Shown: piece after piece, positions 1-960 of the stretch
Layout of the letters: every line of letters starts with the position of its first letter
Position numbering within the stretch: the stretch's first letter is position 1
Source: a virus
Length of the DNA stretch: 51,314 bases
Strand: one strand, 5' to 3'
Virus record (IMG/VR): IMGVR_UViG_3300035490_000495
Translations under genes and position numbers: made by a program
The notes under the pieces: model-generated
What the model was told of the DNA's origin: nothing
The model's database searches: none
The model's input: only the letters and a program-made list of their open reading frames with translations

Positions 1-228
1 TGTAATGTTGGGTCCCGTGTAGCCCGTATATCCCGTGTAGCCTGAGTAGCCCGAATACCCTGTTATGCCTGGACCTGTGTAGCCTGTGTAGCCTGTGTAG
101 CCTGAATAGCCTGTGTATCCTGAGTACCCACTGTAGCCTGTGTATCCCGAATAGCCCGAATAGCCTGAGTACCCAGTGAAGTTCCCAGGGCCGGTGTAGC
201 CTGAATACCCCGTGTAGCCGGTCTGGGG
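1..228 (-). repeat. 9-bp tandem repeat (ggctacacc / ggctattcg variants) encoding GYT/GYS triplets, block 2
   Basis: Seen directly: gtagcc(t/c)g(t/a)(g/a)ta repeated about 25 times on the plus strand. Confidence 0.8.
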
Positions 229-960
229 GACGCCCAGGGCTATGGCGGAGGGGCGCTCCTCCAGCACGATGCCCTCTGTACCCGAGACGGCGAACAGGAT
301 GGGGTTCTGGAAGCTGGTGAGGGCCACGGGGGCGCTTATGGACAGCAGCCCAGGGGTGGCATCGCTGACGAAGTAGTAGTCGCCGGGGGACAGGCCGCTG
401 AGCCCGGACATCGCACCGCTCGTCCAGGCGTTGAAGTTGTCGGCGTCCACGTAGGAGACAATGGCACTGCCCAGGGTATCGGCATTGTCGGCGCAGGCCA
501 GGTCCCACCTGCTGCCGTCGTAGTAGATGGCCTGCCCTGTGCTGAACCCGTGCCCCGGCTGGTGTACGGGGAGGTAGGTGCCTGCGCTGGCGGCAGAGCC
601 GGTGTAGCCGGTATAGCCGGTGTACCCAGTCCCTCCCGGCCCGGTGTAGCCCGTGAACCCGGTGTAGCCGGAGTAGCCTGTCCCGCCAGGACCAGTGTAG
701 CCGGTATACCCGGTGTAGCCGGTGCCTCCGGGTCCCTGCTGCCCCGTGTAGCCGGTGTAGCCTGAGTACCCGGTATAGCCAGTGCCTCCCGCCCCTCCCG
801 TTATAAACGAGGGGTCTAGCTTGCCGCCCGGGCCGAGGACGGGCACCTTGCCTGCATCGCCGCCGCCGGCCGAGGACGTGACCGCGCCCGCCAGCGTCTC
901 CCGGTAGGGGCCGCTGGGGTAGGGAAGGGTTCTGCTGGGAATCTCGAAGGCGTCCGCCAC
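1..960 (-). CDS. collagen-like (Gly-Tyr-Thr/Ser)n repeat protein, probable tail fibre/receptor-binding protein; partial (C-terminal part lies beyond window start)
   Basis: Uninterrupted minus-strand frame from a GTG at 960 (AGGAGA 5 nt upstream, in-frame TAG just upstream) to the window edge. Translation MADAFEIPSRTLPYPSGPYRE...GGTGYTGYSGYTGYTG... has two blocks of perfect Gly-X-Y triplets (X=Tyr, Y=Thr/Ser) flanking a ~120-aa non-repeat domain. Absent from the ORF track because of the non-ATG start; the track ORF 550..765(+) is its antisense shadow. Confidence 0.6.
   Translation of the reverse strand, partial: MADAFEIPSRTLPYPSGPYRETLAGAVTSSAGGGDAGKVPVLGPGGKLDPSFITGGAGGTGYTGYSGYTGYTGQQGPGGTGYTGYTGYTGPGGTGYSGYTGFTGYTGPGGTGYTGYTGYTGSAASAGTYLPVHQPGHGFSTGQAIYYDGSRWDLACADNADTLGSAIVSYVDADNFNAWTSGAMSGLSGLSPGDYYFVSDATPGLLSISAPVALTSFQNPILFAVSGTEGIVLEERPSAIALGVPQTGYTGYSGYTGPGNFTGYSGYSGYSGYTGYSGYSGYTGYSGYTGYTGYTGPGITGYSGYSGYTGYTGYTGPNIT
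591..789 (-). repeat. 9-bp tandem repeat encoding GYT triplets, block 1
   Basis: ggtgtagccggtatagcc-type units; translation GTGYTGYSGYTGYTGQQGPGGTGYTGYTGYTGPGG... Confidence 0.8.

Follow-up and report, generated by a model that had tools for sequence, protein, structure and literature searches.

Why does a 91-aa gene on the plus strand of a phage genome carry the same Gly-Tyr-Thr/Ser (GYT/GYS) triplets as a collagen-like fibre gene on the minus strand 42 kb away? We addressed this question in a stretch of viral DNA of 51,314 nucleotides (IMG/VR record IMGVR_UViG_3300035490_000495, hereafter the window), in which the 5' part of the fibre gene lies at positions 1-960 and the small gene at 43146-43421. 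The initial annotation of this DNA had taken the small gene for a paralog of the fibre gene that might act as a donor cassette for recombinational variation of the fibre repeat length or tip, as a trimerisation module or as an assembly chaperone. Comparison with related metagenome contigs led us to another answer: the small gene is very probably the remainder of an accessory fibre gene of ~400 residues after an in-frame deletion, an instance of ordinary fibre-gene turnover, and its likeness to the fibre gene appears to be that of a common stalk peptide motif and not of recent DNA exchange.

The deletion was recognized from longer versions of the small locus in sister strains. L014, a 1373-bp contig from a sample that also yields a contig of the window clone, corresponds to window positions 43006-43283 over its nt 1-280 and to positions 43284-43431 over its nt 1226-1373, with 945 bp extra between; it shares with the 91-aa allele both flanks, the first 46 codons and the last 45. 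A metagenome scan with the globular domain that the window allele lacks retrieved four more versions of the locus, all with syntenic flanks; of these, L088 carries 864 extra bp at the same point and L089 is likewise longer. Compared with the sister-strain gene, which is ~4 times longer (some 380-425 codons), the 91-aa allele is without ~288-351 codons, exactly in frame, the figure depending on the sister strain. The full gene encodes, in order, a 32-aa N-terminal module, a GYT/GYS stalk of ~190 aa, a globular domain of ~115 aa, a second stalk and the tail PMTLVGYGQTSVLGSPYWVPLYN; the long alleles vary in repeat number, and that of L090 scores 67.5 bits with Pfam Collagen (PF01391). The short and long forms are alleles: they lie between syntenic flanking sequences, and removal of a single contiguous internal block from the long gene gives the window gene.

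The right end of the indel lies within the GYT-coding repeats and its left end directly after them. No microhomology was visible at the 43283/43284 junction in comparison with L014 and L088, and since the junction lacks it we do not claim repeat-mediated recombination as the deletion mechanism.

In the mechanism that we propose, the accessory locus would have encoded a second fibre, attached through a shared anchor module, and in the window clone everything between codons 46 and 47 would have been deleted, leaving the anchor, ten scattered triplets and the tail. The initial annotation had described perfect triplet arrays in both genes, and the triplets are indeed present in both; in the small gene, though, the Gly-X-Y units form three short runs of 4, 4 and 2 triplets separated by two phase breaks, with just five GYT triplets in runs of 2, 2 and 1, and the Pfam Collagen score of its product is 12 bits (E 0.18), below the cut-off of 27.2. 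The gene has a coding-like GC content at third codon positions (GC3 = 0.85), and the strong ribosome-binding site (RBS) noted before it was confirmed (Table 1). Scans around it for sigma-70 promoters and intrinsic terminators found none, and a monomer AlphaFold2 (AF2) model of the protein was uninformative, with a predicted local distance difference test score (pLDDT) of 36.6. Its stop codon overlaps that of a convergent minus-strand 106-aa gene in the CTAG at 43418-43421. Anchor, ten triplets and tail seem too little for a receptor-binding fibre, and therefore, if the deletion origin is accepted, the product is most likely a vestigial stub, a step that we hold with rather less assurance than the deletion itself; it would presumably have lost its function. 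The tail PMTLVGYGQTSVLGSPYWVPLYN may possibly serve as a trimer-registration element, which is speculative.

The exact 91-aa protein was found on eight contigs from several samples and two assembly sources (JGI and ENA). Seven of the eight were compared and match the window end to end (1-15 kb) at 99.6-100% identity; they represent one clone sampled repeatedly, so the conservation of the 91-aa open reading frame (ORF) is uninformative on selection. The ORF was thus not found conserved beyond its own clone, and the next-closest strains have either the ~4 times longer gene or a start-less 3' remnant.

We then asked how far the arrays of the two window genes are related at the DNA level. Near-identical 9-bp units had been reported for them, which our counts contradict: the 34 G-[YF]-[TS] triplets of the fibre gene, arranged in two blocks (aa 56-120 and aa 248-320), are encoded by 19 distinct 9-mers, of which the small gene contains just two, Tandem Repeats Finder (TRF) gave 62-73% matches on a period of 9, and exact repeats within the fibre gene reach 22 nt at most. 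Best blastn scores were compared with those of a null that holds the peptides constant and samples synonymous codons from the pool used in the repeats themselves. The top match of the small gene to positions 1-960 was 34 bp at 88% with 41.7 bits, the null giving 39.5 +/- 4.9 (p=0.36); the longest exact word common to both, 16 nt, was typical of the null, and the long allele of L014 behaved the same as the null against the window part of the fibre gene (p=0.37). A search with a 14-nt seed found no direct or inverted repeat linking the two loci. The small gene does not qualify as a paralog of the fibre gene, there being no homology outside the repeats; nothing in the fibre protein corresponds to the N-terminal module, the globular domain or the tail encoded at the 43146 locus. 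Within the window, the similarity is at the protein level only.

The genome holds at least three genes with stalks of Gly-Tyr-Thr/Ser triplets, namely the fibre gene, the small-gene locus and a third gene, which lies beyond the window, second in order downstream of the fibre gene (L093 12693-13916, L094 12696-14162). The third gene encodes 407 aa in most of the contigs but 488 aa in a single one, an 81-aa in-frame difference inside the repeats between strains that are otherwise ~99% identical; it scores 50.9 bits with Pfam Collagen, and its match to the fibre gene was not significant against the null. The predicted slippage-driven length polymorphism was accordingly borne out in part: the arrays are length-polymorphic in the third gene, in the long alleles and at the 91-aa indel, but not through slippage of identical 9-mers, and a comparison of repeat copy numbers across contigs found the fibre protein itself unchanged. 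On contig L101 (ENA ERZ27249811 k141_179647; nt 205-981, 982-1466), inverted third-gene sequence is joined to the fibre gene, which after 'QTGYTGYSG' receives a different C-terminal domain (P0013); this junction may reflect either a genuine rearrangement or an assembly chimera. Metagenomes commonly encode collagen-like proteins rich in GYT/GYS: of the best 120 matches, 110 have 10 or more of these triplets.

The only recent DNA exchange found seems to involve the N-terminal module of the small gene and not the GYT repeats. Window positions 43139-43226 differ by one base from the start of a gene on L010 (8001-8480) while the sequences on both sides are unrelated, and the module is closer in DNA between these two genes than between the window and its own ortholog in L089. 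The L010 gene encodes P0003, a 159-aa protein resembling leucine-rich repeat (LRR) proteins, whose first 27 residues are identical to those of the small gene before the two diverge. It lies among genes for glycosyltransferases, a GIY-YIG nuclease and a sigma-like protein, unlike the surroundings of the small gene; L010 comes from the same sample as a window-identical contig and its tetranucleotide profile correlates with that of the window at r=0.96, so that P0003 is probably encoded by another gene of the same or a sister phage. An IMG/VR search with P0003 returned one partial match, and IMG/VR contained no copy of an exact DNA pattern taken from the module. A search of 1.84 billion representative proteins with the 35-aa N-terminus found 14 proteins, in ~10 of which the module stands at or within ~10 residues of the N-terminus ahead of differing C-termini. 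One module-bearing protein has LRR repeats, and another, P0137, has a PHROG tail-fibre match at 7e-9 over its non-collagen residues 101-220; the 32-aa module itself has no Pfam or PHROG family match. It is best read, from this distribution, as a portable virion-anchor module for interchangeable fibre proteins.

That the long form was functional for most of its history is suggested by its globular domain and by the state of the locus in other strains. Five different lesions were found at this one locus across strains (Table 1), and the dN/dS of the globular domain is 0.28-0.32 between two lineages and 0.08 within one; purifying selection on the domain therefore points to a long-functional gene and to recent lesions. 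General assembly sloppiness in L088 and L089 was rejected as their source because the genes flanking the locus are intact in both, and what looked like an in-frame stop in a gene beside the locus in L089 proved to be that gene's own stop, two codons early. Suppression of TAG codons was rejected as well, since no tRNA with a CUA anticodon exists among the 25 of the window and the odd one at 26051-26124 has a degenerate Met-like loop. An IMG/VR search with the globular domain gave mostly collagen-repeat matches and a few relatives at ~32% identity, and a separate protein search with it returned nothing. In L090, nt 1-480 encode another N-terminus (MSQICIFNPVTNLIETIDGLVVTW...SSWISLQDNNLNNIPTVSPSWWGAV), which is joined to the same globular domain, tail and 3' flank.

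In more distant relatives, nothing fibre-like stands beside the dGTPase-like neighbour. The accessory fibre gene thus appears to be a lineage-specific insertion in reverse orientation into a nucleotide-metabolism block, which would account for the lone plus-strand orientation of the small gene. The initial annotation had placed it as the only plus-strand gene in a 20-kb minus-strand block; third-party gene calls made on identical contigs confirm it as the sole one from ~34.3 kb, where the contig bearing these calls begins, to ~47.9 kb, or for ~9 kb before the gene and ~4.5 kb after it.

The fibre gene is incomplete in the window, with the other 149 codons lying beyond the window start. Its description as a partial gene was confirmed by the open frame, GTG start and AGGAG motif listed in Table 1 and by the complete gene on seven contigs (L093-L100), where it encodes 469 aa and the protein is identical in all seven. 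Window nt 1-28 differ from the consensus of the complete gene, and the parent contig therefore ended within the repeats. Pfam Collagen scores 30.7 bits on the window part (match aa 263-316) and 36.8 bits on the full protein, both above the cut-off, and PHROG tail-fibre matches fall mainly over the collagen repeats. A C-terminal domain (knob) of ~95 aa ends the protein; neither the knob nor the globular domain of the long allele has a family match in searches including PHROG. A syntenic ortholog of 478 aa (P0006) on the 157.7-kb IMG/VR contig L008 has the same ends and central domain, with GPT-type triplets and with a Gly run in place of the absent stalk 1.

The 469-aa protein is predicted to be a virion surface fibre, of either the head or the tail. 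It would be a homotrimer with its N-terminus on the virion, the domain at aa 1-55 being the presumed attachment end, and its Gly-Tyr-Thr/Ser stalks are expected to behave as collagen-type Gly-X-Y repeats that form a homotrimeric rod. The central domain is likely the trimer node joining the two stalks; as a beta-tulip trimer it would hold them in register, and the distal knob would contact the host. Trimer formation and the virion location of the fibres are both inferred.

Several observations weigh against this account of the two genes. By their neighbours (a major vault protein (MVP)-like protein, rIIA/rIIB, RNA ligase, a dGTPase-like protein, dCMP deaminase, ThyX and NUDIX), neither gene lies in a recognisable tail or baseplate module, and Tyr at every X position is atypical of triple-helix composition, the triple helix being assumed here. 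The 91-aa allele has kept its RBS, start, frame and both termini and might be expressed with some function. The locus is not dead in every strain, as L090, one short contig, holds an intact 394-aa version with the different N-terminus. All sequences are short-read metagenome consensus, in which single lesions could be minority variants or local errors, and the TAG of L014 adjoins a one-residue phase break. With regard to DNA relatedness, the L088 long allele matches the third collagen gene at 141 bits (null 96 +/- 14) and the full fibre gene at 126 bits (null 91 +/- 14, p about 0.03). These matches have 74-75% identity over 300-400 nt, a modest signal that would fit old common descent or a codon-context bias unmodelled by the null, and not recent exchange.

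The retained start and termini are also what one would expect if the 91-aa protein were a functional mini-fibre, plug or adaptor, whose module docks and whose tail trimerises so that the site is occupied without a receptor-binding domain, or else a trimerisation or assembly helper for other GYT fibres. The deletion falls on a codon boundary and keeps the frame exactly, the GC3 is coding-like and the presence of the allele on eight contigs from several samples indicates a successful clone; however, one in three random deletions stays in frame, the conservation is clonal only, and sister strains tolerate nonsense, frameshifted and start-less alleles, which argues that the locus is dispensable. 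The remaining Gly-X-Y runs are very short, the AF2 model does not help, and no evidence was found for the chaperone or trimerisation role that had been suggested, so we consider a functional product unlikely. We are slightly more doubtful still of a further proposal, that the accessory fibre is under recurrent selection for loss with the stub kept to occupy the attachment site and, separately, that the (G-Y-T/S)n stalk is an undescribed aromatic-ladder trimer; here the fibre would expose the phage to host defence or receptor decoys, and hence be knocked out repeatedly in wild populations. That the short allele is instead a short-read collapse of the repeat array, the real genome carrying the long gene, is very improbable. 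Contigs do tend to break at repeats (the window starts inside one, L004 ends 10 bp past the small gene and L014 is little more than the gene), but the same junction recurs in eight contigs from different samples in JGI and ENA assemblies, it offers no homology to mislead a de Bruijn graph, and the arrays contain no exact repeat longer than ~22 nt.

Variation by design was weighed in two forms. A silent or donor cassette recombining with the fibre gene could draw on the same triplet motif in both genes in opposite orientation, on the proposal in the discussion of PMC7242381 that collagen-like repeats are phage recombination hot spots, and on the L101 contig with its fibre sequence, inverted third-gene sequence and different C-terminal domain. 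Against it stand the short exact matches at the level of the codon-shuffle null and the identity of the fibre protein in seven contigs, including samples in which the small locus varies; L101 lacks the small locus and may be a chimeric assembly. Besides the lack of a linking repeat, no recombinase, invertase or reverse transcriptase was found in the precomputed Pfam calls of neighbouring genes, which cover part of the window ORFs, and within that scope the locus does not resemble diversity-generating retroelements (DGRs), invertible Gin/Cin-type cassettes or shufflons. The donor cassette is close to refuted. The lesions could otherwise be regulatory states of a switchable contingency gene, in which C-run slippage or TAG read-through toggles the accessory fibre: a C5 run is altered by 2 bp in one lesion, two others are TAG codons, and long and short alleles occur in the same sample. 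Yet no suppressor tRNA was found, TAG is the gene's own stop and a common stop in the flanks, deletions are irreversible and C5 is short for phase variation, which makes such switching highly unlikely. The in-frame deletion of an accessory fibre gene, with the other lesions as further losses, remains our preferred explanation.

The window has 64% GC with nearly all genes on the minus strand (Table 1). Window-identical sequence occurs on peat/wetland metagenome contigs of up to 126 kb and distant relatives are IMG/VR contigs of 157.7 kb and 265 kb; the window thus belongs to a large, uncultivated phage of peat or wetland metagenomes. Megablast with each half of the window found a single tRNA match among 50,697 phage records and no close annotated phage. 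The clone is polymorphic for an indel of 514 bp: window positions 36352-36865 are missing from contig L003, which is identical otherwise. The minus-strand tRNA cluster has duplicated anticodons (Arg x6, Pro x4, Met x3); the tRNA at 26051-26124, with its shortened, degenerate Met-like anticodon loop, was left unnamed by ARAGORN, and an extra tRNA at 26890-26965 was found by Rfam and missed by ARAGORN. The vault-domain gene at 1605-4037 (minus strand) lies two genes upstream of the fibre gene; L094 has it in two parts of 538 and 267 aa, and in L096 and L097 it is called as 523 aa. A 326-aa protein encoded at 49518-50498 (minus strand) contains a 9-bp tandem repeat at 50037-50072 (96% matches) encoding PYWPYWPYWPYW within a His/Tyr-rich stretch, with a CxxC...CxxC motif at the C-terminus; the neighbouring ORF at 49089-49397 (minus strand) is Pro/Trp/Tyr-rich.

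Table 1. Features of the two collagen-like loci, lesions of the accessory locus and other genes (window coordinates unless a contig is named)
Feature	Location	Strand	Basis or remark
First 320/469 codons of collagen-like fibre gene; GTG start at 960	1..960	-	Stop-free translation; full gene on other contigs
Shine-Dalgarno AGGAG, six bases before GTG	967..971	-	Read from sequence
Fibre N-terminal domain, aa 1-55 (...PYPSGPYRETL...DAGKVPVLGPGGKLDPSF...)	796..960	-	Conserved in orthologs P0006, P0007
Collagen-like block 1 (stalk 1), aa 56-120	601..795	-	GYT/GYS/GFT triplets broken by GPGGT and GQQGPGGT
Central all-beta domain, aa 121-247, beta-tulip fold	220..600	-	
Collagen-like block 2 (stalk 2), aa 248-320, on to ~aa 372 outside window	1..219	-	Longest unbroken run 11 GY[ST] triplets
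91-aa ORF, ATG start; probable in-frame deletion allele of ~380-425-codon fibre gene	43146..43421	+	Comparison with sister-strain alleles
Shine-Dalgarno GGGGGAG, six bases before ATG	43133..43139	+	Read from sequence; conserved in sister strains
N-terminal module: seven leader bases and codons 1-27	43139..43226	+	~99% DNA identity with P0003 gene on L010
Remnant Gly-X-Y runs (GQT GYT GYT GPH / T / GYT GYT GDT GPD / FTDFT / GYT GPM)	43248..43355	+	
Deletion junction, codon 46 (His) / codon 47 (Thr)	43283..43284	+	Alignment with L014, L088, L089
C-terminal tail PMTLVGYGQTSVLGSPYWVPLYN, 23 aa, common to all long alleles	43350..43418	+	Conserved in L014, L088, L089, L090, L091
Lesion: W27 TGG to TAG	L089		
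Lesion: 2-bp insertion in C-run (C5) after ~codon 33	L088		
Lesion: TAG at codon 69 with one-residue phase break beside it	L014		
Lesion: 5' deletion from intergenic region into globular domain; RBS, start codon and 745 nt of gene gone	L091, L092		
Lesion: in-frame internal deletion	Window clone, L001-L007		
rIIB-like gene, 416 aa, adjacent to rIIA-like gene	13641-14891	-	PHROG match 1.4e-63
rIIA-like gene, 807 aa	14948-17371	-	PHROG match 5.6e-108
810-aa protein with vault-protein shoulder and repeat domains	1605-4037	-	MVP_shoulder 1.1e-22, Vault_3 2.4e-10
HNH and RNA ligase fusion	6367-7338		
25 tRNA genes	23655-28417	-	ARAGORN
Radical-SAM protein gene	31695-33386		

The tempting idea of a recombination cassette for fibre variation is thus set aside as unsupported, and in its place stands a natural allele series of one accessory phage fibre gene, comprising long alleles that are disrupted, an intact form in which the N-terminus differs, and nonsense, frameshifted, start-less and in-frame-deleted forms. 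The series offers a clean metagenomic example of the gain, shuffling and loss of phage attachment genes, and a reminder that a small ORF may be perfectly conserved across samples through clonality alone. Gly-Tyr-Thr/Ser stalks are common in environmental phages yet were not mentioned in the literature searched, and they may interest researchers on collagen-like trimers.

Collagen-like proteins are encoded in E. coli O157 prophages (PMC3368898), and the antireceptors of Streptococcus thermophilus phages have domains separated by collagen-like repeats (PMC5601072, citing Duplessis and Moineau 2001). That phage attachment proteins contain collagen-like stalks, and that these are associated with module boundaries and deletions, is established (PMC3368898, PMC5601072, PMC7242381). 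The proteins described here resemble these fibres and antireceptors in their modular Gly-X-Y stalks between globular domains, in repeats that coincide with indels and module boundaries, in Pfam Collagen scores above the cut-off and in matches of PHROG tail-fibre families (cf. 'collagen like minor tail') over the repeats. They differ in that nearly every triplet is G-Y-T or G-Y-S, Pro and charged residues being scarce, and in that the genes lie outside the tail module with PHROG matches over the repeat region only. Natural in-frame deletions in or beside the collagen-like repeats of a presumed attachment protein, as population variants, are similar to the 91-aa allele, whereas the deletion here is far larger (864-945 bp against the two closest strains) and removes a whole globular domain.

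The central domain of the fibre has the beta-tulip fold of capsid decoration and cement proteins; the systems compared were Adjutor gp16 (8saj), HFTV1 (8qsy), the Pam3 cement protein (8hdt) and the head-fibre base of phi29, gp8.5 (6qyy), together with the phi29 gp12 C-terminal fragment (3gqh). Sequence identity is 8-15%, and capsid binding is only a candidate function here; unlike the decoration proteins, which are free capsid binders of ~140 aa, the beta-tulip of the fibre sits between two collagen-like stalks.

The nonsense and frameshifted alleles recall the side tail fibre gene stf of lambda PaPa, an accessory fibre that, as Hendrix and Duda reportedly described in 1992, was lost by mutation with the phage remaining viable. 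In both cases a small lesion inactivates an accessory fibre gene, but lambda PaPa is one laboratory lineage while several independent lesions are seen here in wild populations, and no homology to Stf is claimed. Among bacterial collagen-like proteins, BclA of Bacillus anthracis has GPT repeats whose strain-specific number sets the filament length, and a C-terminal trimeric knob. The phage proteins share with it the order of an N-terminal anchor, Gly-X-Thr repeats of variable number and a C-terminal globular domain, as well as repeat-number polymorphism (407 vs 488 aa); they differ in having Tyr and not Pro at X and in being phage and not spore proteins, with no sequence relationship outside the repeats. 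Tail fibres and tailspikes generally combine a conserved N-terminal anchor with swapped C-terminal domains. In the same manner the 32-aa N-terminus stands on collagen-like, LRR-like and classic tail-fibre-repeat proteins, one pair of genes falling abruptly from ~99% DNA identity to none, although the module here is very short and is without a Pfam or PHROG family of its own.

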